64,000 nt of DNA, taken from the IMG/VR virus record IMGVR_UViG_3300035698_012504, positions 122,694-186,693 of that record. One strand, given 5' to 3'. Below, piece after piece: positions 9,174 through 32,502 of this stretch; within the stretch, counting starts at the first letter, position 1, and every line of letters begins with the position of its first letter. This DNA is from a virus. The notes under the pieces are model-generated. The model made no database searches. It had not been told where the DNA came from and was given only the letters and a program-made list of their open reading frames with translations. Position numbers and translations under genes: made by a program.

Positions 9174-9178
9174 ATACC

Positions 9179-11052: not shown

Positions 11053-11077
11053 GGGGGCTCCTATTGTAGGGGCCCCC
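11053..11077 (+). terminator. GC-rich hairpin GGGGGCTC-loop-GGGCCCCC (terminator or processing-site candidate)
   Basis: 8-bp G/C stem in AT-rich DNA just after the stop of the 10256-11035 gene. No U tract. Confidence 0.35.
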
Positions 11078-11093
11078 AAACCTAAGGATTAAT

Positions 11094-14925: not shown

Positions 14926-15328
14926 CTTCTCAGCAGCACATAGATTAAAATATAGTAAAAGTGACTGTGCGTTTTTACATGGCCACAATTATAAACTATT
15001 AGTATACTATGAAGGAGATCTATCTCCAACAAGTGGAATGGTAGAAGACTTCAAAGAAATAGAATCAAATATTGCAGGATATGTATTAGAGAAGTTCGAT
15101 CATTCTATAATAATAAGTTCACATGACACTGAAATGTTAGATGTTATTGGCGAGATTTCACCTAAGAAAATAGCACTAGTAGATGGAGAACCTACTGCAG
15201 AAGTAATAGTTAACGACATTGCAAAACATATAAGATTTCTTGCACTAGAGTCAGACTTCTATAAAGGTTACAGCGAATTAGAATTATGGGAAACAGATAA
15301 ATACTGCGTCTCATTAAAATTATATTAG
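14891..15328 (+). CDS. queD: 6-carboxy-5,6,7,8-tetrahydropterin synthase QueD (PTPS family)
   Basis: KLTVRVNFSAAHRL...CAFLHGHNY...GMVEDFKEIE are the PTPS/QueD zinc-site and catalytic motifs. The true start may be ATG 14900. Confidence 0.8.
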   Translation: MTKMFKLTVRVNFSAAHRLKYSKSDCAFLHGHNYKLLVYYEGDLSPTSGMVEDFKEIESNIAGYVLEKFDHSIIISSHDTEMLDVIGEISPKKIALVDGEPTAEVIVNDIAKHIRFLALESDFYKGYSELELWETDKYCVSLKLY

Positions 15329-15336: not shown

Positions 15337-17832
15337 ATGTTAATACGAAAGTCAGGTATCATCCTTCCGAAAGATGACCCTCAGTTAGAGTTGATAAAAT
15401 CAGACCTCACTAGGAAAGTCTTTCAGTGGGATGGATCATGGAAAACTATGACCTTTTACGAGGACATGTCAGACTACATAGTTATCCCTAGATTCTACCC
15501 TGCTCTTGGAAAAATAAGAGATGATAGAACTGACGGAGATGATATAGAAATAGAATCAAAAATAAAACCTTTGAATTCTAGACAAGAGAAGGTGATGAAC
15601 TTTCTTGAGAAAACAGAGAATTGTATACTTAGACTCGAACCTGGGAGTGGGAAAGCTCAACCAATTTATTCTAAAATATTGACACCTATTGGTTGGAAAA
15701 ACCTTCAAGATATTCAAATCGGGGATAATGTAATTGATCCAGTATCTGGAAGAAATGTAAAGGTATTAGGTGTTTTTCCTCAAGGTAAAAAAGAAGTATA
15801 TAAATTAACTTTTAATGATGGAGCCACAACGTTTTGTTGTAATGATCATTTATGGAAAGTAAAATATAAAAGATCATGTATTGGTGAAAAAGAATATTGG
15901 AAGATTAAACCATTAAATGATTTAAAAAATGATTATTATATAGATAAACAAAAAAGACTTAAATATTTTATCCCAATTACATCTCCTATTGAATTTGAAA
16001 ATCAAGAAATAAAAATAGACCCTTATCTTTTAGGTTGTTTGCTTGGAGATGGAACAATTAGATTTGGTGGTGGAACTATATCGTTATCTTCCAGGGATAA
16101 AGAATTGATAGAAACTTGTTCGGTGTTATTAGATAAATATAATCTTGAGTTCAAAAAAGATAACAAATATGACTACAGAATAAGAATTAAAAATAATAAG
16201 TTTAGAAAAAAATTTAGAAAAAAAGGAAAATATTTAAATCCTTTAAAAATATATTTGGATGAATTGGGTCTTCTGGGTAAAAAATCATATGAAAAATTTA
16301 TACCAAATACATATAAATTTAATTCTATGTATAATCGAATTAGTATTCTACAAGGACTCTTGGATACCGATGGATATGTTTCAGATAAAAAACAAGAAGT
16401 TAGTTTTTCATCTACATCTTATACGTTATGTAAAGATGTTAAATTTATAGTTGATAGTCTTGGTGGAAAATCCAAAATATATCCAAAACAAACATATTAT
16501 ACATATAAAAATATTAAGAAAAAAGGAAGACCTTCCTGGGTAGTAAATATAACTTTAGATAAAAATATAATTCCATTTAGATTATCTCGAAAAGTTAAAA
16601 GATATAATAATATTCATAAATATCCTCCTTCGAGAGCAATAAAAGATATTAAATATATTGGAAAAGAAGAATGTCAATGTATAAAAGTTGATTCAGATGA
16701 TGGATTATACATAACTGATGATTTTATAGTAACACATAATACTGTTACAGCAATAGAAACTATATGTAGATTAAAGAAACGAACTATTATATTTGCTCAT
16801 AAAACAGAACTATTAGATCAATGGAGAGGTGAATTTCTTAAACATACTAATCTAACAGAAGATGATATTCAGAAGGTTAATACAGACGATAAGAAGTTTG
16901 ATGGCTGTCTGAAAAAGAAAATCATTTTATGTACACCCCATACTATATCTGTAGCTATTAGATTAAATAAAAAAGATTTCATACGCGCATTATTAAAAGC
17001 AGGCATAGGTATTTGTTTTATAGACGAATGCCATGTTGGAATAGGTCCAGAGGAATTCTCCAAGAGTTCAATTTATATAAACGCCAAACGAATATATGGA
17101 TTATCTGCTACACCATTTAGACCAGATGGAAATGATGACATAATAAGATATCACCTCGGAGAGGTAAAGTATTTTCCTCCGGAGAAAGATGAACTAATAA
17201 ACCCCAAAGTTCTTATGGTACATATGCCGTTCCATGTATTTGAAACATATAATATGAAACAAAATTTAATGTGGGGAGGACGATTTCAGAATGCTAGATA
17301 CTGGAATCTATTGGCGAAGCAACCTAAGTATATTCATAATGTTGCGTCGATTATAAAGAGAGCATACACAGAGGGAAGAAATATATTAGTACTTGGCAAT
17401 AGAGTTCAGGGTCTAATGAACATGGCCGAGGCATGTAATATTCATAAAAAAGACATCGGTATATTTATGAGCACTGCCACCAGTGAACATAAGAAAAGAG
17501 TTCTAGAACTTTCAGATACTACAGATCTTAAAGAAGCATTCTATAAAAAGCGAGTTGTGTTTTCTACATATGGTATGGCTAGGGATGGAAACAACAGAAA
17601 AGATTTAGACTTTCTTGTATTATGTATACCGACTGGCAACATAGAACAAGCAGTGGGTAGAGTTCAGAGAGAACTCAAGGGGAAACGTAGACCAATAGTA
17701 ATAGATTTAGTAGATACCCAAAGTCCTAAGAATAAATCTGGAAATTATATATTTGAATACCAGGCACAGAGAAGGAAAGAATTCTATGCTAAGATGGGTT
17801 GGAAAGTTGAGACGATATTTTTTAAAGAATAA
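15337..17832 (+). CDS. SF2 (DExH) DNA/RNA helicase interrupted by an intein in the Walker A motif
   Basis: The extein reads ...LEPGSGK|TVTAIE... (Walker A GSGKT once the intein is removed). CFIDECH (motif II), LSATP (motif III), QAVGRVQR (motif VI). Confidence 0.8.
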   Translation: MLIRKSGIILPKDDPQLELIKSDLTRKVFQWDGSWKTMTFYEDMSDYIVIPRFYPALGKIRDDRTDGDDIEIESKIKPLNSRQEKVMNFLEKTENCILRLEPGSGKAQPIYSKILTPIGWKNLQDIQIGDNVIDPVSGRNVKVLGVFPQGKKEVYKLTFNDGATTFCCNDHLWKVKYKRSCIGEKEYWKIKPLNDLKNDYYIDKQKRLKYFIPITSPIEFENQEIKIDPYLLGCLLGDGTIRFGGGTISLSSRDKELIETCSVLLDKYNLEFKKDNKYDYRIRIKNNKFRKKFRKKGKYLNPLKIYLDELGLLGKKSYEKFIPNTYKFNSMYNRISILQGLLDTDGYVSDKKQEVSFSSTSYTLCKDVKFIVDSLGGKSKIYPKQTYYTYKNIKKKGRPSWVVNITLDKNIIPFRLSRKVKRYNNIHKYPPSRAIKDIKYIGKEECQCIKVDSDDGLYITDDFIVTHNTVTAIETICRLKKRTIIFAHKTELLDQWRGEFLKHTNLTEDDIQKVNTDDKKFDGCLKKKIILCTPHTISVAIRLNKKDFIRALLKAGIGICFIDECHVGIGPEEFSKSSIYINAKRIYGLSATPFRPDGNDDIIRYHLGEVKYFPPEKDELINPKVLMVHMPFHVFETYNMKQNLMWGGRFQNARYWNLLAKQPKYIHNVASIIKRAYTEGRNILVLGNRVQGLMNMAEACNIHKKDIGIFMSTATSEHKKRVLELSDTTDLKEAFYKKRVVFSTYGMARDGNNRKDLDFLVLCIPTGNIEQAVGRVQRELKGKRRPIVIDLVDTQSPKNKSGNYIFEYQAQRRKEFYAKMGWKVETIFFKE
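15655..16740 (+). mobile_element. LAGLIDADG intein (362 aa) apparently beginning with Ala rather than Cys/Ser
   Basis: Block A AQPIYSKILTPIGWKNLQDIQIGDNV. Two LAGLIDADG motifs, LLGCLLGDGTIRFGGG and ISILQGLLDTDGYVSD. C-terminal DDFIVTHN followed by +1 Thr (TVTAIE). Removal recreates GSGKT. Confidence 0.7.
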
Positions 17833-18413: not shown

Positions 18414-19171
18414 TGAGCGAAGTATCATTACCAAATGATAAATTTTCTATCTTCCTAACCATTGTATCAATGATGCAACAGTCATGTGATAACATGCTTA
18501 TAAAGGGTGGGAAGATATGTCAATCCTCTAGTAGAAAAAGTTCAATCTTTGATATAGATTTAGAACCACTAGTAGGAGACATTGATCTAATCGTTAGTAG
18601 ATTAGAATCAAAAAAGGATCTACTTGAAACGTTTAGAAAACAAGAAGTAGATATGACTTTAGAAATTAATGAGAATAATTATATATTTAGAGATAGATTC
18701 TCTAGGGTAACTTGTCATAACATCAAACCTGAAATTGCATACAAAATGAATGTTCCTGTTTCTGATTTAGATAAGACACTGAAGTTAGATGATGTCGAAA
18801 TAATATTTGAATACACTATGAATAGAATGATGATAGATAGAATATCTTCTTTCAGAAAGGCCTTGAGTGCTAGGCATCTGGTGATCGAAGGAAAGGGAGA
18901 TAAGGTAAACTTAAAAATAAATACATCAGATAAGTCATTGGCTACGTTCGGAACCTTAGCAACTATAGATGATCTCCAACAAGAGTTCTCAGGGATTCTT
19001 CCGTACTATTTAAATGTTGTTATGACTAATGTAGAGAGTATAGTATTCACATTGTATTCACGACCAAAAGAAAAAGACTATCTACTTAAAATGGAATCAT
19101 CAATCGGTACCTCTCCCGAAATACCGATTACCGTTTGGGCACTATCAAATCAAACAGACGGAGAAGACTAA
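18413..19171 (+). CDS. hypothetical protein
   Basis: 252-aa ORF. Confidence 0.4.
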   Translation: MSEVSLPNDKFSIFLTIVSMMQQSCDNMLIKGGKICQSSSRKSSIFDIDLEPLVGDIDLIVSRLESKKDLLETFRKQEVDMTLEINENNYIFRDRFSRVTCHNIKPEIAYKMNVPVSDLDKTLKLDDVEIIFEYTMNRMMIDRISSFRKALSARHLVIEGKGDKVNLKINTSDKSLATFGTLATIDDLQQEFSGILPYYLNVVMTNVESIVFTLYSRPKEKDYLLKMESSIGTSPEIPITVWALSNQTDGED

Positions 19172-19175
19172 TAGG

Positions 19176-19460
19176 ATGTTCACTCAGAAGGAAAGAGATG
19201 TAGTTGTATCTAAATTAGCTCCAATAGTACCACCTACAATAGGACCAAATGGAATTAGTACATTTAATAGTTGTAGAGAATTTATCAATGAACTATTAAC
19301 AAAGGATAAGAATCTTTCCGAAGTCGAACAAGCCCTGCTGAGAAGATACGAACAATCGCTAAAAGAAATAGCATTAATATCAGGACAATTAAACTATGCC
19401 TACTTGGATCAACTTGAAAAACTCCAAAAGAAAGTCAAAGTCAAAAAAATCCGCAGCTGA
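19176..19460 (+). CDS. hypothetical protein
   Basis: 94-aa ORF with SD TAGGATG upstream. Confidence 0.35.
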   Translation: MFTQKERDVVVSKLAPIVPPTIGPNGISTFNSCREFINELLTKDKNLSEVEQALLRRYEQSLKEIALISGQLNYAYLDQLEKLQKKVKVKKIRS

Positions 19461-19620
19461 ACCCCTAGATACTTTAGATCTTAATGATGCATCATCAGAT
19501 GAATTAATTAATGTATTACAGGAGCATGAGGAAGTATTAGAATCTATTGAGAGTAATGAACCTAACGAGGAAGTCAAACTAGAGTTGTTTGACGGTGGAG
19601 AAATCAGAAAGGACGGCTGA
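19396..19620 (+). CDS. hypothetical acidic protein
   Basis: 74-aa ORF in a different frame overlapping the previous ORF by 65 nt. Its end abuts the start of the next gene. Confidence 0.3.
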   Translation: MPTWINLKNSKRKSKSKKSAAEPLDTLDLNDASSDELINVLQEHEEVLESIESNEPNEEVKLELFDGGEIRKDG

Positions 19621-22253
19621 TGTATTTTAACATATGGCCAGAAGAACCAACTGAAAACTTTTCCTGGGCTATTTGTAAGAACCCCGAGTCCATCTTCATG
19701 AGAGAGATGGGTAAGGAAGGAAGACGAATAGCTGGGTGGTTTTCAGTCGATGAAAAGACTGGGCGACAATCATATCATGGGTCTGCAGTAAATGCGCCCC
19801 TATCATTTTTAGCAACTGCAAAGAAACTTAATCTACCAGCATATGTCCACAATCATATGACTTCAGTCTGTCCATATAACCTCAAAGCATTTGATGAAAT
19901 CCTCAGATCAGTAATGCGGGGAAGAAATGCATCTGGTGGACACTTAACTGATGAACAATTCTCAGAGAAAAGAATGTGGGGAGCATACATGGGACCATAT
20001 ACTGTGGACCATGAGTATGCCTCTTCATCATTTTCACAAGTAGGAATATCGTGTGTAGATACAATCGGTCTTCCTGGTGGAACACATATGTACTCACTAA
20101 ACTCAATAGAACCAATGTCCATAACAGAATTTCTCCAGAAGGTATATGTAGTAAGCTTTTATCTTTCATTCAATAGAGATAGCATTTACTCAATGGGTGA
20201 AGAACAAGTTGTTAAGTTTATAAATCTTTGTAAAGAATGGATAATGGATTGCCCAATCAAAAACATGATTGTAAATAAAATATGTAGATATAACAAGAAC
20301 CTTATTAAATTATTTGAAACTGGACTGATAGAAGGTATTGAAGACGAAGATCTTAGAGGTGAAATTGCCAAGAAAATAGATGAGAGATTTACACGGATAG
20401 GCCTTCATCAGAAGCGTCACGATCTTGTACTTGAGCTCATGAAAAATCTCCATGCAGATGGAAAGTTTAATACCTTTGTTGATCTTGGTTTCTCAGAAGG
20501 TAAACTATTGTATGCCCTCAGAGAACAAGAAGAGTTTAATTCAGTACGTGCAGTTGGTATAGAGCTAGAAGAGTATCGTGTTAGAAAAGCTCGAAAGAAA
20601 ATGAGAAATACGAATACCAAGTTGATACAATGTGATGCGATGTTCCCGAATATCACTGAAGTGGATGTTAATCCAGACGTATTAGCTTGTGTTGAATTCA
20701 TAGAACACTTCGACAGTGAAGATAGACGTAACCTCGTATCCATAATCAGGGACGTCTTCCAACCGAAGCATCTAGTACTGACTACACCGAACGTAGCATA
20801 TAATGATATAATAGGATTGGAAGAAGGAATATGGAGACATAGAGATCATAAGATAGAGTTCAACTACGATGAGTTTGTTGCCGAGGTAGTAATTCCTCTT
20901 GCGAAGAAATACACTGTGGAAATGCGCCTCCTTGTCCCAGAAGAAGAAATACAACCATCGTTCTGTTTAGTATGTACCCGAGTTGAAACTCCTATCAAGA
21001 AGAAAAAGAAGAGAGGGAGAGGTAGATCTCCTGTTAACCATCAAACAATATCAATAAGAAAATGGCAGGAGATGTATCAAGGAATTCACTTCAGTCGCGT
21101 AGGGTATACTGTCAGACCCAATGAGATAGCGAATGGATATTCATCTCGCGCATTCAGAATGAATGGAAAAAATATATTCTATCTTGCCCCAACAATAAGC
21201 CCGTGCGATTGGACTGAGGGAGCTCCAGACTTCTTAGAGCACCCTCTTTCTTGCTTTGAGTACTATAGAAACCGTGGAGTTACTAAGCTCATTGGTGAAG
21301 AAAAGTACATGGGTTCAAGAGGATATATACTATGCTTCAAAAATCCAGAGGATGCTAAGGCAGCTGGATACAGATTACCACTAGTTATAAATTCAAGAGG
21401 TGGGTTCCCATTCTTCACCGACGATGCCACACTGATGGCCATATGGGAAGAGCTCGCCCCTGCAATGAAATTTGATTTCATGGTACTAGATGCAGAGATC
21501 ATGCCCTGGAATTTGAAGGCTGGTAAGATGATTGATCGCCAGTTCAGACAGCCAGGTGAATGTGCATTTCTTTCTAGATCATACGCATCCGGAACCTCTC
21601 TGGAGGTTCCAAGCGATTACACCCAAAGTTCTGTAGACTTCCTAGAAACAGTAGACACATATGCTGCAGATTCCAGACTAGAAATAAGACCGTTCCATGT
21701 TCTAGCATATGGATCATGTGATCAGCATCCCAAAGGACTTAGGTTCAGAGATGTTGTGAATGGATTCTTTATGGATCATGGAAAACATCTAGAATTAATT
21801 CAAGATATCTCAAATACAAAAGGCGATGCCAGTTTCATTAAACATTGTGTTGGACATGTTGTATACTTACAAGAGCCGAAGTCAGTAGCAGATTCCATTG
21901 AGAGATGGATGAAGTATTGTGACAATGAAGTAGGCGAAGGATTCGTATACAAACCAATGGACTTCATGAGATATTCAGCGAATGGATATTACATTCAACC
22001 AGCAGTTAAAGTTCGAGGAAAGAGATACCTACAGATAGTATATGGTATCGACTATCTCCAACCTGATTATTTCGAACAATTAAAGAGAAGGGGAACGAAG
22101 AAGAAGAGAGTCCTTGCAGCTCAAGAGTTTGACGTGTCCCTCAATATGTTAACTGCATTCCTTAGAAGAGATCCGGTGATGCTTAAGCGGTACACTGCAG
22201 CGTTTATCGGAATGGAATCAGTAAACATGAGAGGTATTGACGCGACTCTTTAA
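19620..22253 (+). CDS. Hen1-like RNA 3'-terminal 2'-O-methyltransferase fused to an ATP-dependent RNA-ligase-like nucleotidyltransferase
   Basis: Methyltransferase motifs: FVDLGFSEGKLL (SAM motif I), LACVEFIEHF, LVLTTPNVAYN, WRHRDHKIEFNYDEF (Hen1 metal-site signature). Ligase-like motifs: EEKYMGSRGYI (motif I Lys), FMVLDAEIM (III), EGFVYKP (IV), VKVRGKRY (V). Confidence 0.65.
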   Translation: MYFNIWPEEPTENFSWAICKNPESIFMREMGKEGRRIAGWFSVDEKTGRQSYHGSAVNAPLSFLATAKKLNLPAYVHNHMTSVCPYNLKAFDEILRSVMRGRNASGGHLTDEQFSEKRMWGAYMGPYTVDHEYASSSFSQVGISCVDTIGLPGGTHMYSLNSIEPMSITEFLQKVYVVSFYLSFNRDSIYSMGEEQVVKFINLCKEWIMDCPIKNMIVNKICRYNKNLIKLFETGLIEGIEDEDLRGEIAKKIDERFTRIGLHQKRHDLVLELMKNLHADGKFNTFVDLGFSEGKLLYALREQEEFNSVRAVGIELEEYRVRKARKKMRNTNTKLIQCDAMFPNITEVDVNPDVLACVEFIEHFDSEDRRNLVSIIRDVFQPKHLVLTTPNVAYNDIIGLEEGIWRHRDHKIEFNYDEFVAEVVIPLAKKYTVEMRLLVPEEEIQPSFCLVCTRVETPIKKKKKRGRGRSPVNHQTISIRKWQEMYQGIHFSRVGYTVRPNEIANGYSSRAFRMNGKNIFYLAPTISPCDWTEGAPDFLEHPLSCFEYYRNRGVTKLIGEEKYMGSRGYILCFKNPEDAKAAGYRLPLVINSRGGFPFFTDDATLMAIWEELAPAMKFDFMVLDAEIMPWNLKAGKMIDRQFRQPGECAFLSRSYASGTSLEVPSDYTQSSVDFLETVDTYAADSRLEIRPFHVLAYGSCDQHPKGLRFRDVVNGFFMDHGKHLELIQDISNTKGDASFIKHCVGHVVYLQEPKSVADSIERWMKYCDNEVGEGFVYKPMDFMRYSANGYYIQPAVKVRGKRYLQIVYGIDYLQPDYFEQLKRRGTKKKRVLAAQEFDVSLNMLTAFLRRDPVMLKRYTAAFIGMESVNMRGIDATL

Positions 22254-22264
22254 CAATACAATTT

Positions 22265-22292
22265 CCAGGGGGAGGAATGGTTCTCCCCCTGG
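22265..22292 (+). terminator. GC-rich hairpin CCAGGGGGAGG-loop-TCTCCCCCTGG
   Basis: 11-bp stem immediately after the stop of the 19620-22253 gene. No U tract. Confidence 0.35.
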
Positions 22293-22313
22293 CACCCTTA
22301 AAGGAGACATCTA

Positions 22314-22802
22314 ATGGGTAGTATATCAGACGGACGAGACAAACCAATTAATGGATTTTTTAATCAATATGAATTCCTATCTAATTTTCATCCCGCTCCT
22401 GTAGAATTTGAAGGGGTAATCTATCCAACTGTAGAAAATGCGTATCAGGCTGCGAAAAGCAGAGACCCAAAAACAAGAGAGAGATTTGTAAATATTACTC
22501 CTGGCCAAGCAAAGAAACTAGGGCAGGAAATAGAAATAAGAGAGGATTGGGAAGCAGTTAAATTAGGGGTCATGTTCATATTATTATTTGAAAAAATTGA
22601 CGAACATGAAGATCTGCTGGAGAAATTAGTAGAGACTGGAAATGCACATCTAGAAGAGACAAATACATGGGATGATAAATACTGGGGAGTATGTGATGGT
22701 GTAGGTGAAAATCATTTAGGTATTTTATTAATGACAGTACGAGGAGCTATTGCAATTGAGAGAGGTATTATATTACAATGTGGATCATCTGCATCCTCTT
22801 AG
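22314..22802 (+). CDS. NADAR (YbiA/DUF1768) domain protein
   Basis: FFNQYEFLSNFHPAPVEFEGVIYPTVENAYQAAK, the NADAR signature (SNF..P....G..Y.S.E..FQA.K). Confidence 0.8.
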   Translation: MGSISDGRDKPINGFFNQYEFLSNFHPAPVEFEGVIYPTVENAYQAAKSRDPKTRERFVNITPGQAKKLGQEIEIREDWEAVKLGVMFILLFEKIDEHEDLLEKLVETGNAHLEETNTWDDKYWGVCDGVGENHLGILLMTVRGAIAIERGIILQCGSSASS

Positions 22803-23092
22803 GATCATTGCTCCTTCTTAAACTTAATATTAGTTTCTCTAATTGGGACATCACTTTAATAAATACATTAAAGCTTACACCTGTTATCATACTCGCTAAC
22901 TATTTATATTGGGTAGCATTTCAAAGAGGACCAACAATATTTGTGGTTTGGATTATAGCTACGGGATGTATATCAGTTCTTTCATTTCTTTATTCCATTT
23001 ACTTCGACAACCAATTAATTAATTTAAAATTGATAGTAGGATCACTAATGATACTACTTGGAAGTTACATCCTGACGACGACAACTAGCTAA
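22778..23092 (+). CDS. small multi-pass membrane protein
   Basis: 104 aa with three or four hydrophobic helices (IICILLGSLLLL..., VIILANYLYWV..., IFVVWIIATGCISVLSF..., LIVGSLMILLGSYIL). Confidence 0.4.
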   Translation: MWIICILLGSLLLLKLNISFSNWDITLINTLKLTPVIILANYLYWVAFQRGPTIFVVWIIATGCISVLSFLYSIYFDNQLINLKLIVGSLMILLGSYILTTTTS

Positions 23093-23104
23093 GGAGAAAG
23101 AAGA

Positions 23105-24346
23105 ATGGAAAGAGAAAGTTCATTACACCGGGTAACAAAAGGTAAATTCCTTAAGATGTATCTTACCCATTATGGTTATCTTTATAGATTGATGACTGAT
23201 TGCCTGCACTCCCATGAAGGGGAGCCGAACCGATACCATCTAGAGGATAATCTATGGACTCATACCATGTTAGTATTCAATGGACTGAATCTTTTCGATC
23301 CTTCTCTCTGTTACAACGGTATAAATATAAGTGATGTGGGAAATAAAGTAATTTTGACTGCAGCTTTGGTCCATGACTATGGAAAGATTTCACGTAGGCA
23401 ACCCAATAGAAAAGGGGACGGCGTGGCTTTCTATGGACATGGTCAAGCAGGCACACAGTTTGCAGCAGAGGTGTGTCACAAATTGTTTGGGGACGATCCT
23501 GATTTTGGTCTCATTCTACATTGCGTAACATTACTTACAAGTAGACACATTGATGCTTATCAATTGAAAGATAAAGGAAATATTGAAGGATTTTGTAACA
23601 ATTCATGGTTCATTACTGAATGCTTCAATAGATTATTAAGTGCTGATGAATATGGTCAGATCACCGATGATGACAATGATCGGATGAAGAATCCTGACCT
23701 CAGGTCGAACCAATTTACCATAGCGATTCAATCCCTACGGGAATGTGGGGTAGACCCTATATTAGATTTAAATAGAGAAATCTATTTAAATAAAGATGGT
23801 TCCAAATTAAAAGAAGACGATGATATTAATGGATGTATATTTTGTGGAGCTCCGGGCGTAGGGAAAGACTACCTCGCATTAAAATTAGGGTTCAAAATAT
23901 TTAGCTTCGATGATATCAGAGTAGCCGAATATATTAAAGAACATCCTGAGGCAGTTGATTCCTGCGACCCGGACACTTTATATAATGAAGCATACAGATG
24001 GTGCAACTCTAATAAGGTTGACTTAATGGCCTTGCTACGGAATGCGATTGTAGAATTCAGAGCAATCAATGGTACAGATGCGAAAATAGCAATATGTAAT
24101 ACGAGTCTTACGGTTAAATCTCGTAAGCAATTATTCAGTCTCTTGAAGAAAATACTAGGAAAAACATCCAAGATAGGATGTAAGTTTATAATATGTAACA
24201 CAAAAGATTACATTGCAAGAGATGCAGATAGAAAAGAGAAAACTGTAAAAGAACATGTAATAAATTGGATGATTCCTAAAATGAGTATCCCTACTCAGCG
24301 AGAAGGATTTCATAAAGTTGAGGTGATCTGGAACGACACCGAATAG
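23105..24346 (+). CDS. HD-domain phosphohydrolase fused to a T4 Pnk-like P-loop polynucleotide kinase (RNA end-healing candidate)
   Basis: HD motifs HTMLVF...TAALVHDYGKIS. Kinase motifs CGAPGVGKDYLALKLG (Walker A), FDDIR, IAICNTSLTVKSRKQ (T4 Pnk ISDTNLNPERR-like). Confidence 0.65.
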   Translation: MERESSLHRVTKGKFLKMYLTHYGYLYRLMTDCLHSHEGEPNRYHLEDNLWTHTMLVFNGLNLFDPSLCYNGINISDVGNKVILTAALVHDYGKISRRQPNRKGDGVAFYGHGQAGTQFAAEVCHKLFGDDPDFGLILHCVTLLTSRHIDAYQLKDKGNIEGFCNNSWFITECFNRLLSADEYGQITDDDNDRMKNPDLRSNQFTIAIQSLRECGVDPILDLNREIYLNKDGSKLKEDDDINGCIFCGAPGVGKDYLALKLGFKIFSFDDIRVAEYIKEHPEAVDSCDPDTLYNEAYRWCNSNKVDLMALLRNAIVEFRAINGTDAKIAICNTSLTVKSRKQLFSLLKKILGKTSKIGCKFIICNTKDYIARDADRKEKTVKEHVINWMIPKMSIPTQREGFHKVEVIWNDTE

Positions 24347-24358
24347 AAAGGAATATTA

Positions 24359-25093
24359 ATGGGATTAGATGTATCTTTATATAAATTGAATGGTGTTACG
24401 TATGATGAAATTATTGAAATGTCCAATGATTCTGATGAAGATCGCTGGGAAGAAATCGATGCAGCTAAAGAATCAATAGGAATAGATTCTAAATTATATC
24501 CTGATGAGTTATTTAAGATTGGATATTTTAGAAGTAGTTATAATGAAGCAGGAATTAATAGAGTATTGGATCAAAGAATAGGTAAATCATTACCAGATAT
24601 ATTTCCTGGTAAAGTTAAAGATGAATATCATGTTCGAGTTGATTGGGAACAATCATTACGATTAGCCACAGAAGTAAAAGAAGAATTCATAAAATTTGTA
24701 GAGTTATATGGTGACTTTACAATCATGACTGTGAACATGATTAATCCATTCCAACAGGCTCCAAGATCATCAGTATCTGATTCCGATGCCTTAAAAACAT
24801 TTATAGATGTAAAAGAAAAACATAAAGAGCCAAGTCCCTTTGGATCAAATTGGTTTAATAGCAACGAGGGAACATTTTTCTTAGACGATTCTCCCACAAT
24901 ACTTGCTGTCATCCCTGGCCAGAGCGTCATGGGTTCTCAAGTAATTCATCTTATAATCGAGAGTAAACGAGATGAGAATGGTGAACTAGCTTTAGATAGT
25001 TATGTTAGATCATTAGAGATCGTAGAAGAAACTTGCCAGTGGGTATTGACACAAGAAGACCCAACCAAATACATACTAGGTTGGTCAGGATAG
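24359..25093 (+). CDS. hypothetical protein
   Basis: 244-aa ORF. Confidence 0.4.
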   Translation: MGLDVSLYKLNGVTYDEIIEMSNDSDEDRWEEIDAAKESIGIDSKLYPDELFKIGYFRSSYNEAGINRVLDQRIGKSLPDIFPGKVKDEYHVRVDWEQSLRLATEVKEEFIKFVELYGDFTIMTVNMINPFQQAPRSSVSDSDALKTFIDVKEKHKEPSPFGSNWFNSNEGTFFLDDSPTILAVIPGQSVMGSQVIHLIIESKRDENGELALDSYVRSLEIVEETCQWVLTQEDPTKYILGWSG

Positions 25094-25099
25094 GAAACA

Positions 25100-25993
25100 A
25101 TGGGAGCAGTAACAGCTAAACTAAAAGAGAAGGGAGTGATTCAACCTCCCCCATTTTTACTAGATAATATACATTATGAAACCATGATGGGTAGTCATGC
25201 CTATGCAGTAAACAATTCCGATTCTGATGTAGATATATATGGGTTTTGTATACCCCCAAAAGAAATTATATTTCCACATCTAGGTGGAGACATAGTTGGG
25301 TTTGGACTGCAGAAGAAAAGGTTCGAGCAGTTTCAAGCACACGCAGCAGTCGATCCTGACACTGGTGTAGATTATGATATTACCATATATAGTATAGTCA
25401 AATACTTTCATTTATGTATGTTAAATAATCCTAATATGATTGATTCATTATTTACATCTAGACGTTGTGTATTGCATGCAACTAAAGTAGCAAACATTGT
25501 AAAAGAAAACAGAAAGTTGTTTCTTCATAAGGGTAGCTGGCACAGGTTTAAGAACTATGCCTACTCCCAAATAAATCAAATAAGAACTAAGAATCCAAAA
25601 GGAAAAAGAAAACAATTGGTAGAACAATTTGGGTATGATGTTAAGTATGCATACCATCTTGTTAGACTGATGTGTGAGGTTGAACAAATTCTTTTGGAAC
25701 ATGATATAGATCTTGAAAGAAACAGAGAACAACTTAAATCAATAAGAAGAGGAGAATGGACTAAAGAAGATGTATTCGACTGGTTTTCTAAGAAAGAAAA
25801 AATACTGGAAGAAATATATGTCAAGTCTGATCTCCGAGAAGAAGCAGAAGAAGATGCTATCAAGCAACTACTAATGGATTGTTTAGAAGAACACTATGGA
25901 TCATTGGATGGAGTGATCGTTACTCCTAGTAAATCTGGTAAAATTCTAGACGATTTAGAAGGGCTTCTTCACAAACATAGAATGTATGAATGA
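25100..25993 (+). CDS. predicted nucleotidyltransferase (Pol-beta superfamily, PF10127-like)
   Basis: MGSHAYAVNNSDSDVDIYGF matches the GS-x(9-13)-DxD nucleotidyltransferase signature. Confidence 0.6.
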   Translation: MGAVTAKLKEKGVIQPPPFLLDNIHYETMMGSHAYAVNNSDSDVDIYGFCIPPKEIIFPHLGGDIVGFGLQKKRFEQFQAHAAVDPDTGVDYDITIYSIVKYFHLCMLNNPNMIDSLFTSRRCVLHATKVANIVKENRKLFLHKGSWHRFKNYAYSQINQIRTKNPKGKRKQLVEQFGYDVKYAYHLVRLMCEVEQILLEHDIDLERNREQLKSIRRGEWTKEDVFDWFSKKEKILEEIYVKSDLREEAEEDAIKQLLMDCLEEHYGSLDGVIVTPSKSGKILDDLEGLLHKHRMYE

Positions 25994-26008
25994 ATGGAAA
26001 AATAATTT

Positions 26009-26776
26009 ATGTTTAAATATGGAGAAGTAATTTGGATTGTTAAATCCAATAAAGAAAATAATATAATCGAATTACAGGGTCCTCTTGTAGTGGGGAGAAA
26101 GGACTCAGACCACATTTACTTTAATGGTAATAAACGAATATCTACTTTTGATATATCTTCTGGAAAAGTAAAGTGTTATTCTAATCCCGAAGAAGCAATG
26201 ATCTCTTATAAGAAGCTGGCACTTACTGAAGGTCTACTTGACCCAGATGGAGATAAATTTGGATGGGCACGGGTAAGTCCTGAACCAAGAAAAGAAGATG
26301 ATATATCTGCAGATGAATCTCCATCAAGTATTACAGATCTATTAAGAGAAAAAGAAAGAGAAGTAACCACACCCGATAACCATACAATTCCTGTTAGAGA
26401 TGGATATAATTCTTTTCCTACTGGCCCACATTGGGAGCAACTCCAAAGGGGCCTGGCGGAAGGAATTGCAACCGATATAGATAGAAATATTATAGATGAT
26501 ATCGTTAACTTCCATCCTCCTTTTTACATATCTGACTATGGAACGGCTACAGATTCTACTGGCGGTTATAGTAGTACTGGTAGTATTAGGGATTATAATA
26601 GAATAGATCTAAGTAACTATATAACTGGTGGGTATACATCCATTCAATCTTATGTTACTCCTGTTGCTCCTCTTGAGCGCATTAATGTTACATTCACAAT
26701 TGATGGTACCATCGACACAAGTACAGAAGTAGATCTAGGGACAGAAGTAGAGACAGAAGAGGAGGAGATTGATTAG
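26009..26776 (+). CDS. hypothetical protein with acidic C-terminus
   Basis: 255 aa. Ends ...TEVETEEEEID. Confidence 0.4.
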   Translation: MFKYGEVIWIVKSNKENNIIELQGPLVVGRKDSDHIYFNGNKRISTFDISSGKVKCYSNPEEAMISYKKLALTEGLLDPDGDKFGWARVSPEPRKEDDISADESPSSITDLLREKEREVTTPDNHTIPVRDGYNSFPTGPHWEQLQRGLAEGIATDIDRNIIDDIVNFHPPFYISDYGTATDSTGGYSSTGSIRDYNRIDLSNYITGGYTSIQSYVTPVAPLERINVTFTIDGTIDTSTEVDLGTEVETEEEEID

Positions 26777-26778
26777 TT

Positions 26779-27330
26779 ATGTTTGGTAAAAACCAGCCAC
26801 AGTTTTTTGTTACTCGTATACATAACGAATACTTAAAAATTACTGGTCATCATAGTCTCTTCAGCGTCGTAAATGATATTGTTAACCCTAGAATTTTTAA
26901 TTATTTAGACATACAATATAGCTATGCATCTCAAATTAATATCCTCTTAGCTTCTCCTGATATGGTTAAGGGAATCATACGAGACGTACAATACGATGAG
27001 GGTTTACACCGTTCTATATTAGAGTTATCAATAAGTCAGTTAGAATGGTTAGGATATGACCCAAATAGATTATCATTAAAGATAGATCTATTTCAGGGAC
27101 CATTCCCGACTGTAATATCCCCTAGAAACTTTTACACATATGTAGCATTATCTGGGTTTAAATTAAAAGATATCGAGGTTAAATCAGGAATGATGTATAA
27201 AAAATATTATACCAATTGGTTATGTAGATTCTATTGGAACAATAGAAAAGATTATGGTTTGGTTTATAATAACAAACTTTCTATACCAAACTATATTAGT
27301 GAGCTATTTGATGGAGGAATTATAATTTAG
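26779..27330 (+). CDS. hypothetical protein
   Basis: 183-aa ORF. Confidence 0.4.
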   Translation: MFGKNQPQFFVTRIHNEYLKITGHHSLFSVVNDIVNPRIFNYLDIQYSYASQINILLASPDMVKGIIRDVQYDEGLHRSILELSISQLEWLGYDPNRLSLKIDLFQGPFPTVISPRNFYTYVALSGFKLKDIEVKSGMMYKKYYTNWLCRFYWNNRKDYGLVYNNKLSIPNYISELFDGGIII

Positions 27331-28024: not shown

Positions 28025-29041
28025 ATGAAGTTTATTTTTACTGCCGACATTCATCTTAAGTGGTGGCAAGATAGGGACCACGATGAGAATGGAGTTCCTA
28101 TGAAATTAGTAGAGACTTTAAATGCATTTGAAGACATGTGTAAGTATGCTGTAGAACATAAGATAGAAAAGATTATAATTGGAGGAGATTTAAATGATAC
28201 AAAATCTACAGTTAATACTAGATCATTTGTATTGTTTAGAAAAATACTTGAGAAATATGAAAAAGAATATACACAACTAACATTTATATTCATCCCAGGC
28301 AATCATGACCTCACAGCAAAATTCACATACAATAATGCTGTAGATCTAATGGTAGGTCCTAGTAATGTATTAGTATACAATGATCCTACTGTGATAGATG
28401 ATATAACTCTTATACCCTGGAACTATAACATAGCAGATGAAATTTATAAAGCAGATAGAAATAGAATTTTAATATCTCACTTCGGTTTATCTGATGCTAA
28501 ACTAAGTTCTGGTATATCTATTCGTGCTAATTTATCGTCCGATGATCTGAAGAAATTTGATCTGGTTCTACTGGGTCATTATCATAAGCCTCAGACAATT
28601 GGACATGTTCACTACGTAGGGTCACCTATCCCATTTAAACGGGATGAAGCAGAAGAAGAAAAGAGATTCCTAGTTGTCGACACCGCTACCTTAGAGGTTG
28701 AGTCTATACCAACCAAAGGGTATAGACAATATAGAATAGTAGAGATCACTGAGGAATCAGATGTTAGAGAATTAAATGAATTAATAAGATCATATAAAGA
28801 AAATGGTGACTTTATAATAGTAAAGAAAAGAGTTAAGACTCTTCCTAAATCATTAGAAGAATTCAAAGACATACAACTTCTAGATTTATATGAGGAAGAT
28901 CATCAGATGAGAGGGATAACTTCCTCTATGAATATAGAAGATCAAATGAAACAATATATGAAGATCAAAGAAGTTCCAGACAATGAAAGAGACAAGCATC
29001 TACGGATCGCAGTGAGGGCCATATCAGATGACAGCGGATAA
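28025..29041 (+). CDS. Mre11/SbcD-like nuclease (calcineurin-like phosphoesterase; T4 gp47 analogue)
   Basis: FTADIHL (motif I), IIGGDLND (II), FIPGNHDL (III), LLGHYHKPQ (IV). Confidence 0.85.
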   Translation: MKFIFTADIHLKWWQDRDHDENGVPMKLVETLNAFEDMCKYAVEHKIEKIIIGGDLNDTKSTVNTRSFVLFRKILEKYEKEYTQLTFIFIPGNHDLTAKFTYNNAVDLMVGPSNVLVYNDPTVIDDITLIPWNYNIADEIYKADRNRILISHFGLSDAKLSSGISIRANLSSDDLKKFDLVLLGHYHKPQTIGHVHYVGSPIPFKRDEAEEEKRFLVVDTATLEVESIPTKGYRQYRIVEITEESDVRELNELIRSYKENGDFIIVKKRVKTLPKSLEEFKDIQLLDLYEEDHQMRGITSSMNIEDQMKQYMKIKEVPDNERDKHLRIAVRAISDDSG

Positions 29042-29453
29042 AAAAGAACCAGCATATCTAGCAATGATAAGAGCAGAAAATAAGTATTATTTATTAGCAA
29101 ATGATTCTGATGGAACTATTGTAGCATTTGATACTTTAGAAACAGCAACCAATTTCTTTGAGAAAGGTTATGAAGAATCACATGCTAGAAGCTATGAAGC
29201 ATCGATGTCAGCATGTATTAATTATATATTCTTTAACCCTAGTATTATTAAGTTGGAAGATAAAGAAGATATAGTAAACACAGTAATCGTATTTCCTATT
29301 AAGATGGTACGTTTAACTCATGTGGCTGGTAATGTAAATGCTCTTCCGTGTGAAGGGCCAGATGCTGAGGCATGGTTTGAAGCTGGTATAAAACCAAGGC
29401 TAATACATAACGGTGAACCAATAGGACAGATGGACCTTCCAGGAATAGAATAA
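29028..29453 (+). CDS. hypothetical protein
   Basis: 141-aa ORF inserted between the Mre11-like and Rad50-like genes. Confidence 0.35.
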   Translation: MTADKKEPAYLAMIRAENKYYLLANDSDGTIVAFDTLETATNFFEKGYEESHARSYEASMSACINYIFFNPSIIKLEDKEDIVNTVIVFPIKMVRLTHVAGNVNALPCEGPDAEAWFEAGIKPRLIHNGEPIGQMDLPGIE

Positions 29454-29468
29454 CATTTAAGGAGTTTA

Positions 29469-30134
29469 ATGCGAGCTAGTATAGGTTATAAGAAAGATTG
29501 GTATTATGGTATAATTAAACAATTATCCCCTAGAATGAAAGAAGCATTGATAAACATATATGGATACTTTTTAGATACTGATAGAAGTTACCCTTGTGGA
29601 TTGTGGTTACACTCAGGATATTATAATTACGATAGGTATTGTACGAAGTATGAAAAAGAGATAGAAGATGATACGATTTTCAGCGGACAATTTCAACCAA
29701 TATCTAGAGTTGGTGAAAAAAGACCCGAAGGGGTTCCTAGTTGGAATTGGCACCACACTGAAGTATATGTATATGAATCTGGAGAGGTTGATCAGAAAGA
29801 CGAAGAGGTCAATCCAGATCCATACTTTAAATCTTATTATAGAGAATATATAAATACATGCCAAGCTTTAAAAAGAAGAGAATTAATTTATAGAGATAAA
29901 GAAACTAAAGCTTTTGTTTATACAGTAAGCCCCCCCAAAGAGGCATTACCAAATACGGTACCGATCCCAACTCCAACTCTTAGAAATTATCCATTTACTC
30001 GTACCATTAGAAAAGATCAACATCGCATTAGATACGACCTCACCGATAGAGGATACGTAGTAGCAAAAATGTTATATAAAATAAGGAATGAAGACATGTC
30101 AAGATTTGTTATGTATAATGGAATAGAGATCTAA
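29469..30134 (+). CDS. hypothetical protein
   Basis: 221-aa ORF. Confidence 0.4.
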   Translation: MRASIGYKKDWYYGIIKQLSPRMKEALINIYGYFLDTDRSYPCGLWLHSGYYNYDRYCTKYEKEIEDDTIFSGQFQPISRVGEKRPEGVPSWNWHHTEVYVYESGEVDQKDEEVNPDPYFKSYYREYINTCQALKRRELIYRDKETKAFVYTVSPPKEALPNTVPIPTPTLRNYPFTRTIRKDQHRIRYDLTDRGYVVAKMLYKIRNEDMSRFVMYNGIEI

Positions 30135-30156
30135 CTTTTGATTCTTAGGAGACATA

Positions 30157-32502
30157 ATGATTAATATCATATTCAAAAAAATTAGAATGAAAAACTTTCT
30201 TTGTCATGAAGATATGGAGTTTGCATTCACCCCGAATAGATTTGTTAGTATAACTGGAAAGAATGGAGTTGGTAAGACAGCTATATTCGATGCTCTTCTT
30301 TGGTGTTTATATGATACCACAACTCGTGGAATCACCGGCGACAAAATAATAAGGAAGAGAGCAAAGAAGAACTGTTATGTTGAATTAGAATTTTCCATAG
30401 GAGAAGACGAATACATTATTAAGTGTTATAGAAAGCATTATAAATTTAGTAATGAGAAAATTCTAATTAAGAATGGTGTAGATATTACAGAGTCTCTCAG
30501 GCGATTAACAAATAAGAAAATAGCTGATATCATAATGGAACCAGAAGTGTTCATGAACAGCTTGTTGTTCTCACAATACATCGGGAGTGACCGTGGATTC
30601 GTAGAGATGAATCATACAAATCAAAAAACTATCTTAGATAAAATGTTATCATTAGATAGATATGATGATTACTATGATAAGATATCAGATAGAATAAAAG
30701 AAATTGATTCTGAAATAGTAAACAAACAACATGATAAAGATAATATAAACGGAATCAAAGATTCAAATCATAATATTTTAATTGATTATGAATTACACTT
30801 ATCAGAGTTAGATGAACATCATGATGATACTAAGAGATTAATATTAGATGAATTAGAAACACATAGGTTGACAATAGAAGAAGGTAGACGGTATATAGAT
30901 ACTCATTTATTATACTATGAAAAGAGATCTGAATTGGGTGAAGCTCTAGTAGTTATAAAGCATGCAGCTGAAAAGATCTCAGAAGAAAAACAAACTAAAA
31001 AGAATGATTTATTAAGAGAGAAAGAATCTAGAATAGATTCCATAAGATCAGAGTTATATAGATCATATATGAATAAGAAAGATTCTCTCACCCAGAAGGT
31101 ACATGAATTAGAGAATCAATTACTAGAACTATACACAATATATGAAGTAGAGAAAAGTAGTATGGATAGTAAGTACTCCAGACAACGCGAATCAATACTT
31201 CAACTAACTACTGAGAAAGTAAATGAATTTAATTCTGTATTAACCAATCAAAGAGAAGTAATATCTAAATGTAATAATAGAATCGAATCTATTGGATTAT
31301 ATTTAAATGATAAAATAGAGAAGCTGTCTCAATATAAAAATTCCAAGTGTCCTGAATGTGGGCAGAGTCTAAAAGATATGGATGATACATCTAGCAGAAT
31401 ATCACAATTAGAAAAAGAAATATCAGAATTGAAAAGAGAGTTGAGTGAAAATGAGGACAACGCTGCCAACGCATCTTCTATTCTTAGAGATTATCAGAAG
31501 GAAAAAAATGATTGGGAAGAAAAGTCTGTAAACAATTTATCATTTTTTAAAACTGAAAGACAAGAAGCAGCAGAATTATTAACCTCAAAGTATAAGGAAG
31601 ATAAAAGAGCGCGGGAGTCTGAGGTCGGGCCATTAAGATTAGAGTTAGTTGATATGGAAAATAAATATAACGAAGATCTAGAATTAGAAATTGAAAAAAT
31701 AAACAGAGAGTTTGAGGTGAAAATATCCGATTCTCTGATTAAATATAATAGAGAATTGAAAGATAAGTTAGAAGAGATCGGAGAGATTGAGTACGATTAC
31801 AATGATATGAAAGAGAAGTGTGAGAAGTTGGATGAAATTAAGATGGACCTCTCTACATCTATTACACAGGTAGAGAACAGAGAAAGAAATCTTGGAGAAT
31901 ATGAATCCCAATACAGGGACAATAAAGAAACATTCAATAGAAATATATCAAAGATAAAGATCTCCCTAGATGAAGGAGATGAGCAGATAGAAGAACTAGA
32001 TAAAAATATATCATCATTAGAAGAAGAAACTAAAATTCTAGAATTTTGGAAGACTGCATTTTCTAATATGGGAATAAAATCTTTACTGTTAGACGAGGCC
32101 ATACCTATCTTAAATAGTAAATCGCTAGAGCTATCCCGTTTAACAGAAAACATCAGGGTATCATTCGACAGTCAGACAACTCTTAAGTCAGGAGAACATA
32201 GAGATAAGTTCTCCATAAATGTAATACATACACAAAACCTATCCGAGCTAGGAGAACTCTCTGCTGGAGAATCAAGACTCACCAGTATAATAGTCCTTCT
32301 GTCTCTTAGACATTTGTTAGAAGTAATGAATGGAACATCTATTAATATCTTATTACTAGATGAAATATTAGACGGTCTAGACATTGATAATGTAACTGTG
32401 GCATTGAATATGTTGAGGAGACTGTCTAAGAAACGGTGCGTAGTCCTAATTTCTCATACACTCAGAGATAATATAGAAGCAGATGATTATCTACCTATGT
32501 AG
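30157..32502 (+). CDS. Rad50/SbcC-like SMC ATPase (T4 gp46 analogue)
   Basis: N-terminal Walker A ITGKNGVGKTAIFDAL. Long coiled coil with a CxxC zinc hook (KCPECGQ). C-terminal signature LSAGESRLTSIIVLLSL and Walker B ILLLDEILDGLD. Confidence 0.85.
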   Translation: MINIIFKKIRMKNFLCHEDMEFAFTPNRFVSITGKNGVGKTAIFDALLWCLYDTTTRGITGDKIIRKRAKKNCYVELEFSIGEDEYIIKCYRKHYKFSNEKILIKNGVDITESLRRLTNKKIADIIMEPEVFMNSLLFSQYIGSDRGFVEMNHTNQKTILDKMLSLDRYDDYYDKISDRIKEIDSEIVNKQHDKDNINGIKDSNHNILIDYELHLSELDEHHDDTKRLILDELETHRLTIEEGRRYIDTHLLYYEKRSELGEALVVIKHAAEKISEEKQTKKNDLLREKESRIDSIRSELYRSYMNKKDSLTQKVHELENQLLELYTIYEVEKSSMDSKYSRQRESILQLTTEKVNEFNSVLTNQREVISKCNNRIESIGLYLNDKIEKLSQYKNSKCPECGQSLKDMDDTSSRISQLEKEISELKRELSENEDNAANASSILRDYQKEKNDWEEKSVNNLSFFKTERQEAAELLTSKYKEDKRARESEVGPLRLELVDMENKYNEDLELEIEKINREFEVKISDSLIKYNRELKDKLEEIGEIEYDYNDMKEKCEKLDEIKMDLSTSITQVENRERNLGEYESQYRDNKETFNRNISKIKISLDEGDEQIEELDKNISSLEEETKILEFWKTAFSNMGIKSLLLDEAIPILNSKSLELSRLTENIRVSFDSQTTLKSGEHRDKFSINVIHTQNLSELGELSAGESRLTSIIVLLSLRHLLEVMNGTSINILLLDEILDGLDIDNVTVALNMLRRLSKKRCVVLISHTLRDNIEADDYLPM

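Follow-up and report, generated by a model that had tools for sequence, protein, structure and literature searches.

A phage NADAR gene located in an RNA-repair cassette is a candidate counter-defence gene against DarT1-type toxins

The window, i.e., the whole stretch of 64,000 nucleotides that was analysed, contains an open reading frame (ORF) for a protein of the NADAR family, which is flanked on both sides by genes with a role in RNA repair. The following features are found at the locus:

19620-22253, plus strand: gene for an 877-aa protein, Hen1 (N-terminal domain and methyltransferase) fused to a Pnkp-type RNA ligase, according to profile matches
22265-22292, plus strand: GC-rich hairpin with a stem of 10-12 bp, between the stop codon of the Hen1-ligase gene and the ribosome-binding site of the NADAR gene
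22302-22306, plus strand: Shine-Dalgarno sequence AGGAG of the NADAR gene, 7 nt 5' of the ATG, read directly from the sequence
22314-22802, plus strand: NADAR-family coding sequence, an ATG-initiated ORF of 162 aa
22778-23092, plus strand: ORF for a predicted multi-pass membrane protein of 104 aa, which overlaps the 3' end of the NADAR gene by 25 nt
23105-24346, plus strand: gene for a 413-aa, HD-Pnk-like HD/P-loop protein, which has the HD domain at the N-terminus and the P-loop (GAPGVGKD) at the C-terminus
25100-25993, plus strand: gene for RlaP, an RNA-ligase-associated Pol-beta nucleotidyltransferase (Pfam RlaP, E=5.6e-14; PHROG 388, E=4.5e-41)
28025-32502, plus strand: SbcD/SbcC homologs, downstream of RlaP

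All large ORFs of the window are located on the plus strand, and its GC content is 34.6%. Pfam searches revealed topoisomerase II subunits, an intein-bearing helicase, the SbcD/SbcC homologs, a large terminase, and a multisubunit RNA polymerase with two beta-like subunits and one beta'-like subunit. Further Pfam matches were QueD, a GATase-QueC fusion, ThiF, JAB proteins, and a DUF2201 protein. A megablast search of INPHARED with positions 19000-27000 did not detect any nucleotide relative, and the source is an uncultivated large phage that has no relative at the nucleotide level among the deposited phages. A contig of 152,492 bases encodes a Hen1-ligase protein identical to that of the window. 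Neither tRNA genes nor Rfam families were found near the NADAR gene.

The original prediction had located the NADAR gene within a repair island, and the neighbouring genes bear this out, with the Hen1-ligase fusion upstream and the HD/P-loop, RlaP, and SbcD/SbcC homologs downstream. The immediate cassette is, however, devoted to RNA repair and not to DNA repair. The fusion protein matches the profiles PNKP_ligase (E=5.8e-59), bacter_Hen1 (E=4.4e-30), and the ligase part of bacter_Pnkp (E=8.6e-55). The HD/P-loop protein has a weak Pfam match to HD (E=0.0054), a match to P-loop NTPases, and a match to PHROG 6931 (E=1.5e-27), while a relative with a solved structure was not found. Its architecture resembles that of the end-healing HD-Pnk proteins (PMC6097658), and it is a putative end-healing enzyme. 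Homologs of it adjoin the fusion gene also on the contigs L075/L076 and L080. An ORF of 244 aa without assigned function lies between the HD/P-loop gene and the RlaP gene.

The hairpin upstream of the NADAR gene has a predicted RNA folding energy of -28.8 kcal/mol over 71 nt (z=-3.2), which was equalled by none of 200 shuffled sequences. It occurs once in the window and is not followed by a U-tract on the plus strand, and thus it is neither a repeated regulatory element nor a canonical terminator. It is possibly a transcript boundary, a stabiliser, or a processing site.

The clear NADAR signature that had been claimed for the ORF at 22314-22802 was verified, and the match is far beyond chance. 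In the search with the Pfam profile PF08719 (DUF1768), which the original prediction had named as a check, the protein reached 80 bits (E=3e-22) with a gathering score of 35.1, and the alignment spans positions 9-162 of the 163 profile positions. The protein also matches PHROG 1017 (E=1.4e-40) and the sequence of the YbiA structure (E=2.8e-18). A large protein database contains 1993 homologs at E<=1e-5, nearly all of which are stand-alone NADAR proteins of about 140-160 aa, and homologs were found in 475 phage records. Identical, intact copies of the gene with the same neighbours are present on independent metagenome contigs (L001/L002). The window gene is thus a genuine and intact phage NADAR gene, and its family membership is backed by the profile match, the fold, and the catalytic residues.

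The AlphaFold2 model of the protein, which was calculated from 36 sequences, has a mean pLDDT of 93.2 and a pTM of 0.87. It has the YbiA-like alpha+beta fold, with a helical core and small beta hairpins at the flanks. Only the first approximately 10 and the last approximately 14 residues are not conserved, and the confidence of the model is low there. A Foldseek search of the PDB with the model revealed two significant matches only, and both are NADAR structures: E. coli YbiA (TM 0.80, rmsd 1.9 A, 37% identity) and the NADAR of Phytophthora bound to ADP-ribose (PnNADAR, TM 0.71). In PnNADAR the ligand is contacted by E43, K50, R79, W89, R93, E125, D130, and W133 (PMC11543638). These residues were mapped onto the window protein with a HMMER alignment and an alignment of 38 sequences, which gave the following assignment of domain, motifs, and residues:

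Residues about 12-148 of 162: NADAR domain, according to Pfam PF08719, the AlphaFold2 model, and Foldseek
22374-22457, plus strand: N-terminal signature block FLSNF...ENAYQAAK, residues 21-48, with the invariant S23/N24 and the catalytic pair E41/K48
22434-22436: E41, equivalent to PnNADAR E43, in 38 of 38 sequences
22455-22457: K48, equivalent to K50, in 38 of 38 sequences
Q71, equivalent to R79, in a variable column (R 25, Q 5, K 5, other 3)
W79, equivalent to W89, in 38 of 38 sequences
K83, equivalent to R93, Lys in 34 of 38 sequences including YbiA and Bas32
22656-22685, plus strand: C-terminal active-site block EETNTWDDKYW, with E115, D121, and W124
22656-22658: E115, equivalent to E125, in 38 of 38 sequences
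22674-22676: D121, equivalent to D130, in 38 of 38 sequences
22683-22685: W124, equivalent to W133, in 37 of 38 sequences

The N-terminal block is the peptide FLSNFHPAPVEFEGVIYPTVENAYQAAK that had been quoted in the original prediction. Seven of the eight contact positions (E41, K48, W79, K83, E115, D121, and W124) are either conserved or substituted in the same way as in YbiA and Bas32, and the eighth is Q71, the equivalent of the phosphate-contacting R79. E41 and K48 are separated by 7 residues, which is also the spacing of E36 and K43 in the NADAR protein AdfN of phage T4 (AdfN-T4), and mutation of the latter two residues impaired AdfN-T4 (PMC11825919). Because of the conserved contact residues and the identical spacing, the active site of the window protein looks intact.

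The literature distinguishes DarT1-linked NADARs (BC4488/DarG1), T4-type phage NADARs, YbiA-type NADARs, and other "NADAR" groups. The position of PnNADAR E125 is diagnostic, as it is Asp in the DarT1-linked proteins, His in the T4 type, and Glu elsewhere (PMC11543638), and the window protein has Glu at this position (E115). The protein is therefore not an antitoxin of the DarG1/BC4488 type, which would have Asp, and a DarT or ART gene is not adjacent. In addition, the basic N-terminal beta1-beta2-alpha1 extension of the DarG1 type is absent, and the core begins after no more than about 11 disordered residues. The DarG1 structure was not recovered by Foldseek with the model at E<=10. DarG1 of G. 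lovleyi and E. coli C7 (Schuller et al. 2023, PMC11543638) and the window protein nevertheless belong to the same superfamily and share the predicted hydrolysis of guanine-N2-linked ADP-ribose.

Membership in the T4 gp30.3 type was also rejected, based on a score of 19.4 bits for PF08010 (Phage_30_3), which has a cut-off of 36. The BLASTP alignment with T4 gp30.3 showed 23% identity over 57 aa only, and tblastn with the window protein did not detect gp30.3. In contrast to E115 of the window protein, gp30.3 has His in the respective column. Common to both are a similar size and the N-terminal motif SNF...E...K. AdfN-T4 has been proven to be a DNA ADP-ribosylglycohydrolase and to counter DarTG1 (PMC11825919), but it requires the T-even context for full activity. 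For the DS32_2 NADAR anti-phage protein (NCBIfam NF053876) the score was 43.1 bits, which is below the cut-off of 240.

For the YbiA equivalog model TIGR02464, which has a cut-off of 73.7 bits, scores of 71.9 for the window protein, 169.5 for YbiA, and 66.3 for the Bas32 NADAR were obtained, and T4 gp30.3 did not score. The window protein missed the cut-off marginally, but it is so far below YbiA that true orthology was rejected. YbiA (PDB 2B3W; an N-glycosidase for riboflavin intermediates) and the window protein agree in their catalytic residues and in the core fold, to which neither of them adds extensions. However, YbiA is basic (pI 9.3) and is encoded on the chromosome, in a LexA-controlled operon together with dinG and rhlE.

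The closest validated relative is bas32_0066 of Escherichia phage IrisVonRoten/Bas32, with 46% identity over 142 aa (E=1e-34). This gene was located through synteny with another T5-like phage. As the NADAR homolog that was found in the Bas32 genome, bas32_0066 is presumably the published AdfN-Bas32. Consistent with this identification, the syntenic region of Bas28, a T5-like phage that is not given as NADAR-bearing in PMC11825919, did not contain a match. AdfN-Bas32 (Bas32/Bas33, T5-like Markadamsvirinae; Johannesman et al. 2025, PMC11825919) and the window protein are both stand-alone minimal domains of about 150 aa. They share the Glu at E115 and the substitution at K83, both are below the threshold of the YbiA equivalog model, and both are encoded by phages amid genes of nucleic-acid metabolism. 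They differ in the genomic slot, which is downstream of RNase H in the T5-like phages and inside the RNA-repair cassette in the window, in the net charge of the domain (0 for Bas32 versus -11), and in the residue at Q71, which is Arg in Bas32. Judged by its sequence, the window gene encodes a minimal single-domain NADAR of a Bas32-like phage clade.

All four NADAR families tested hydrolyse guanine-linked ADP-ribose (PMC11125620, PMC12945103), in agreement with the activity that had been ascribed to NADARs in the original prediction. Every family tested removed the modification from ssDNA (PMC11125620) and likewise from RNA (PMC11833690). Cytosine-linked ADP-ribose is removed by NADAR-type and YbiA-type enzymes as well (PMC12945103), while thymine-linked ADP-ribose was removed by none of the NADARs tested (PMC11125620). 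NADARs are inactive on ADP-ribose that has been attached to phosphate ends by Tpt1/KptA or PARPs (PMC11833690). Phage NADARs, named AdfN, neutralise DarTG1, and AdfN-Bas32, without other phage factors, both neutralised DarT1 in cells and enabled RB69, T5, and Bas25 to form plaques again on DarTG1 hosts (PMC11825919). The NADARs of Bas32 and Bas60 rescued DarT1 toxicity in vivo (PMC11825919), and YbiA or the T4 NADAR expressed alone did not (PMC11125620). Protection in vivo is thus more selective than the activity on guanine-linked ADP-ribose in vitro, and the latter is no guarantee of rescue.

Based on its homology, the window protein probably, though with considerable room for doubt, hydrolyses base-linked ADP-ribose and thereby counters the defence by DarT1-type toxins. 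We infer its catalytic activity, its substrate, and its counter-defence role from the enzymes described above, and anti-DarT1 activity has been shown for the Bas32 NADAR, whereas it is presumed for the window protein. In the proposed mechanism the ADP-ribose moiety would be bound by K48, W79, K83, D121, and W124, and E41 and E115 would serve to break the N-glycosidic bond that links the distal ribose to the exocyclic amine of the nucleobase. The substrate would likely be guanine N2, possibly also cytosine, and the cleavage would give back the unmodified base in the phage nucleic acid. In this role the protein would be an AdfN that counteracts DarT1-type ADP-ribosyltransferase toxins of the host, by which the replication of phage DNA is blocked. 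The view that the gene is a candidate for anti-DarT1 counter-defence therefore gains support from the homology to the Bas32 NADAR and from the published work on AdfN (PMC11825919). Two features of the sequence weigh against it, namely Q71 in place of the phosphate-contacting Arg, although this column varies, and the lack of the basic N-terminal extension, for which ssDNA binding has been proposed in DarT1-linked NADARs.

The location of the gene raises the question whether RNA is the substrate. As a working part of the RNA-repair operon, the NADAR would strip guanine- or cytosine-linked ADP-ribose, which host RNA-targeting ADP-ribosyltransferases had placed there, from tRNA, rRNA, or mRNA. It would act as a "base-healing" enzyme beside end-healing by the HD/P-loop protein, 2'-O-methylation and sealing by the Hen1-ligase fusion, and nucleotide restoration by RlaP. 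In line with this, the gene lies directly between the sealing and the healing genes, on the same strand and with short spacers, and NADARs are the sole hydrolase family found to reverse the ADP-ribosylation of guanosine in RNA (PMC11833690). Cytosine-linked ADP-ribose is also taken off RNA, and EcYbiA seemed to prefer RNA (PMC12945103). Associations of NADARs with RNA-repair regions in phages have already been noted by the Aravind laboratory (PMC9503650).

The conservation of the linkage was analyzed from both sides. On the NADAR side, 63 IMG/VR loci with homologs of 38-56% identity were inspected within 10 kb in both directions. The only cassette gene at these loci was an RlaP-like gene, which was present at four of them, and relatives of the Hen1/Pnkp-ligase fusion or of the HD/P-loop protein were seen at none of the 63. 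A Pfam census of 127 ORFs neighbouring viral NADARs did not reveal a dominant partner. Among the minorities were HAD_SAK_2 (2), AAA_33 (2), HAD_PNKP (1), and a CCA-adding-type protein (PolyA_pol, 1), which would fit RNA repair, as well as Nudix (3), NMNAT-like (2), and SLOG (1) proteins. The gene for the nearest NADAR homolog (about 60% identity) is located among genes for IF3, GrpE, and purine metabolism. On the cassette side, a NADAR gene was found near the Hen1-ligase fusion in none of the six other lineages that were examined. The cassette of L075/L076 is complete without a NADAR gene, having the HD/P-loop homolog, the fusion, and RlaP. The closest cassette relatives, L080/L081 (42% identity), have the order fusion, 74-aa ORF, 105-aa membrane ORF, and HD protein, which mirrors the order fusion, NADAR, 104-aa membrane ORF, and HD/P-loop protein in the window, and the 74-aa protein is unrelated to NADAR. 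Thus, the cassette has a variable slot, and in the window this slot is filled by the NADAR gene.

Synteny therefore fails in both directions, the NADAR is not a conserved member of the RNA-repair cassette, and an obligatory link is not supported by the comparative data. Because the linkage is not conserved, the position within the repair island gives no support for a specific function. The strong hairpin between the ligase gene and the NADAR gene also argues against a common role, and the RNA-directed function is, on balance, unlikely. A special form of it has a still lower probability, namely that the NADAR has been recruited into the operon and de-ADP-ribosylates host or phage RNA. In this case RNA, e.g., tRNA, would be attacked by a defence with an RNA-targeting ADP-ribosyltransferase, and the acidic surface of the NADAR would not bind nucleic acid directly, but would dock onto the repair complex. 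If this were true, RNA repair would include a "base-healing" step of de-ADP-ribosylation.

The acidity itself is unusual. The NADAR domain, with a net charge of -11 and a pI of 4.7, is more negative than any other of the 38 sequences that were compared; the median pI of the homologs is 7.2, and the values are 7.0 for Bas32, 9.3 for YbiA, and 9.0 for T4 gp30.3. In part the acidity is a trend of the proteome, as 42% of the window proteins have a pI below 5.5. Nevertheless, such a strong acidity is unexpected for an enzyme that binds DNA and is hard to reconcile with direct binding of nucleic acid, and it keeps alive readings with a small molecule as substrate or with a partner protein.

In the former, the enzyme would degrade soluble derivatives of NAD+ or ADP-ribose, such as cADPR variants, ADPr-1''P, or Appr>p, which serve as immune signals or are toxic metabolites. 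Comparative genomics and the contextual analysis of phage NADARs have led to this proposal for most of them (PMC9503650, PMC7824862). The Nudix, NMNAT-like, and SLOG neighbours of clade members mentioned above agree with it, and the negative charge together with the lack of a nucleic-acid-binding extension fits such a substrate better than it fits a DNA enzyme. However, a soluble ADP-ribose substrate has been demonstrated for no NADAR in the studies considered here, and all families tested hydrolyse base-linked ADP-ribose (PMC11125620, PMC12945103, PMC11833690). Furthermore, the window does not contain a Tpt1/KptA, macro, ART, Nudix, or NAD-salvage gene. Taking both sides into account, a small-molecule substrate is improbable.

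The cassette would not supply such a substrate either. In the Hen1/Pnkp pathway 3'-OH and 5'-PO4 ends are sealed with ATP to a 2'-O-methylated 3'-5' junction, and neither a 2'-phosphate nor Appr>p is generated and NAD+ is not needed (PMC6097658). Together with the absence of Tpt1, macro, ART, and Nudix genes from the window, this leaves a role of the NADAR in processing an ADP-ribose by-product of the pathway without a basis. The processing of Tpt1/KptA products (Appr>p, 5'-P-ADPr caps) by the NADAR was thus rejected, since Tpt1 is missing in the window and NADARs do not act on phosphate-linked ADP-ribose (PMC11833690).

A YbiA-like metabolic role, i.e., an N-glycosidase that destroys reactive intermediates of the riboflavin pathway or a related GTP-derived ribosylamine, is very unlikely. 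In its favour, YbiA is the best match with a solved structure in sequence and fold, the TIGR02464 score is just below the cut-off, many homologs are labelled "ribA/ribD-fused" or "riboflavin biosynthesis protein" in databases, and the phage has QueD and QueC of the GTP-derived 7-deazaguanine pathway, but YbiA itself scores far higher and the DarT1-neutralising Bas32 NADAR nearly the same as the window protein, riboflavin genes are absent from the window, YbiA itself hydrolyses guanine-linked ADP-ribose (PMC11125620), and the labels result from annotation transfer from fusion proteins and are not evidence.

Counter-defence by phage NADARs has already been published (2024-2025), and the window gene adds a member and not a new system. 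If active, it would be one more divergent example of AdfN/NADAR counter-defence, in this case in a large phage with its own multisubunit RNA polymerase. Its placement in the cassette and its atypical charge make it a reasonable test case for the questions whether some phage NADARs act on RNA and whether they act together with partner proteins.

A separate observation concerns the neighbouring genes. Full-length relatives of the Hen1-ligase fusion are rare, as 8 were found in 5.8e9 proteins, and a pattern scan of IMG/VR for relatives of the fusion found none. The gene callers did not call the 104-aa membrane ORF on the identical contigs L001/L002, and the 105-aa ORF at the same position in L080/L081 has 30% identity to it over 83 aa (E=1e-4). 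Arguably, the region is less unusual for its NADAR gene than for the Hen1-ligase fusion cassette and the conserved small membrane protein encoded in it.

The gene directly upstream of the NADAR gene combines two RNA-repair components in one protein, and three further elements surround the NADAR gene in the cassette:

19620-22253, + strand: fusion of Hen1 and a Pnkp ligase domain, a single protein of 877 aa
22265-22292: GC-rich hairpin, CCAGGGGGAG..CTCCCCCTGG, in the 60-nt spacer upstream of the NADAR gene
22778-23092, + strand: predicted multi-pass membrane ORF of 104 aa, with a 25-nt overlap with the NADAR stop region
23105-24346, + strand: HD/P-loop protein of 413 aa, with an N-terminal HD motif region and the C-terminal P-loop GAPGVGKD

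In bacteria, Hen1 and the Pnkp ligase are two separate proteins. The 877-aa protein comprises the Hen1 N-terminal ligase-activating domain and 2'-O-methyltransferase, joined to the Pnkp ligase domain. Only eight full-length relatives were detected among 5.8e9 proteins, all of them on phage-like metagenome contigs, and no published account of a Hen1-Pnkp ligase fusion was found in the literature searched. A longer relative of 1044 aa is present on a very large phage-like contig of 443 kb (L082, JGI 3300066690, 6001-12461). At this locus a Nudix gene is the second gene downstream of it, and an SmpB homolog is also found nearby.

The hairpin between the fusion gene and the NADAR gene is unique, and its stability is far higher than that of shuffled sequences (z=-3.2). 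A U-tract was absent at the hairpin on the coding strand.

The NADAR domain itself (residues 12-148, window 22347-22757) has a net charge of -11 and a pI of 4.7, and is the most acidic among 38 members of its clade. This acidity is unexplained in an enzyme that is expected to act on nucleic acid. The neighborhoods of two other phage NADAR genes were compared:

L067 (phage T4), 7206-8766 and 14003-14908: neighborhood of the NADAR gene 30.3
L074 (Bas32), 808-2091: neighborhood of the NADAR gene of a T5-like phage

T4 gene 30.3 is located just past gene 30, which encodes DNA ligase, and some 5 kb away from the polynucleotide kinase gene pseT; the NADAR gene of T5-like phages comes after RNase H. 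Phage NADARs thus tend to keep company with genes for nucleic-acid end processing, but no one partner is constant.

The 104-aa membrane ORF was not called by gene callers on identical contigs. In the closest relatives, an ORF of 105 aa with 30% identity to it (E=1e-4) occupies the same position after the Hen1-ligase gene:

L080, 7978-8295: 105-aa counterpart
L081, 4485-4802: 105-aa counterpart

The conservation of a small, predicted membrane protein within an RNA-repair cassette is unexplained. The 413-aa protein belongs to PHROG 6931, which has no assigned function, and a search for a relative with a solved structure found none. Judged by its motifs, its architecture is that of a putative HD-Pnk-like end-healing protein; in L080 a gene of its own, of 243 aa, encodes the HD part.

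Further genes of the window characterize the phage:

78-1322, + strand: 414-aa ORF with a LAGLIDADG domain
3101-7144, 42271-45069 and 45681-48698, + strand: RNA polymerase subunit genes, two beta-like and one beta'-like
14891-15328, + strand: QueD/PTPS homolog
15337-17832, + strand: ResIII-type helicase containing a LAGLIDADG domain
35485-37580 and 39318-39887, + strand: E1-like genes of the ThiF family, along with a JAB-domain gene, adjoining the QueC fusion
37565-39307, + strand: glutamine-amidotransferase-QueC fusion

With two beta-like genes and one beta'-like gene, the phage encodes its own multisubunit RNA polymerase(s). The same is true of phiKZ-like phages, yet the source contig here comprises only about 152 kb. 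The QueD/PTPS homolog and the QueC fusion suggest, from gene content, a 7-deazaguanine modification in the phage DNA. We infer that guanine N2, the target of DarT1, would stay exposed under this modification, and, thus, that it would not replace a NADAR. The ThiF and JAB genes may form a ubiquitin-like or sulfur-transfer module, and the ResIII-type helicase probably bears an intein.
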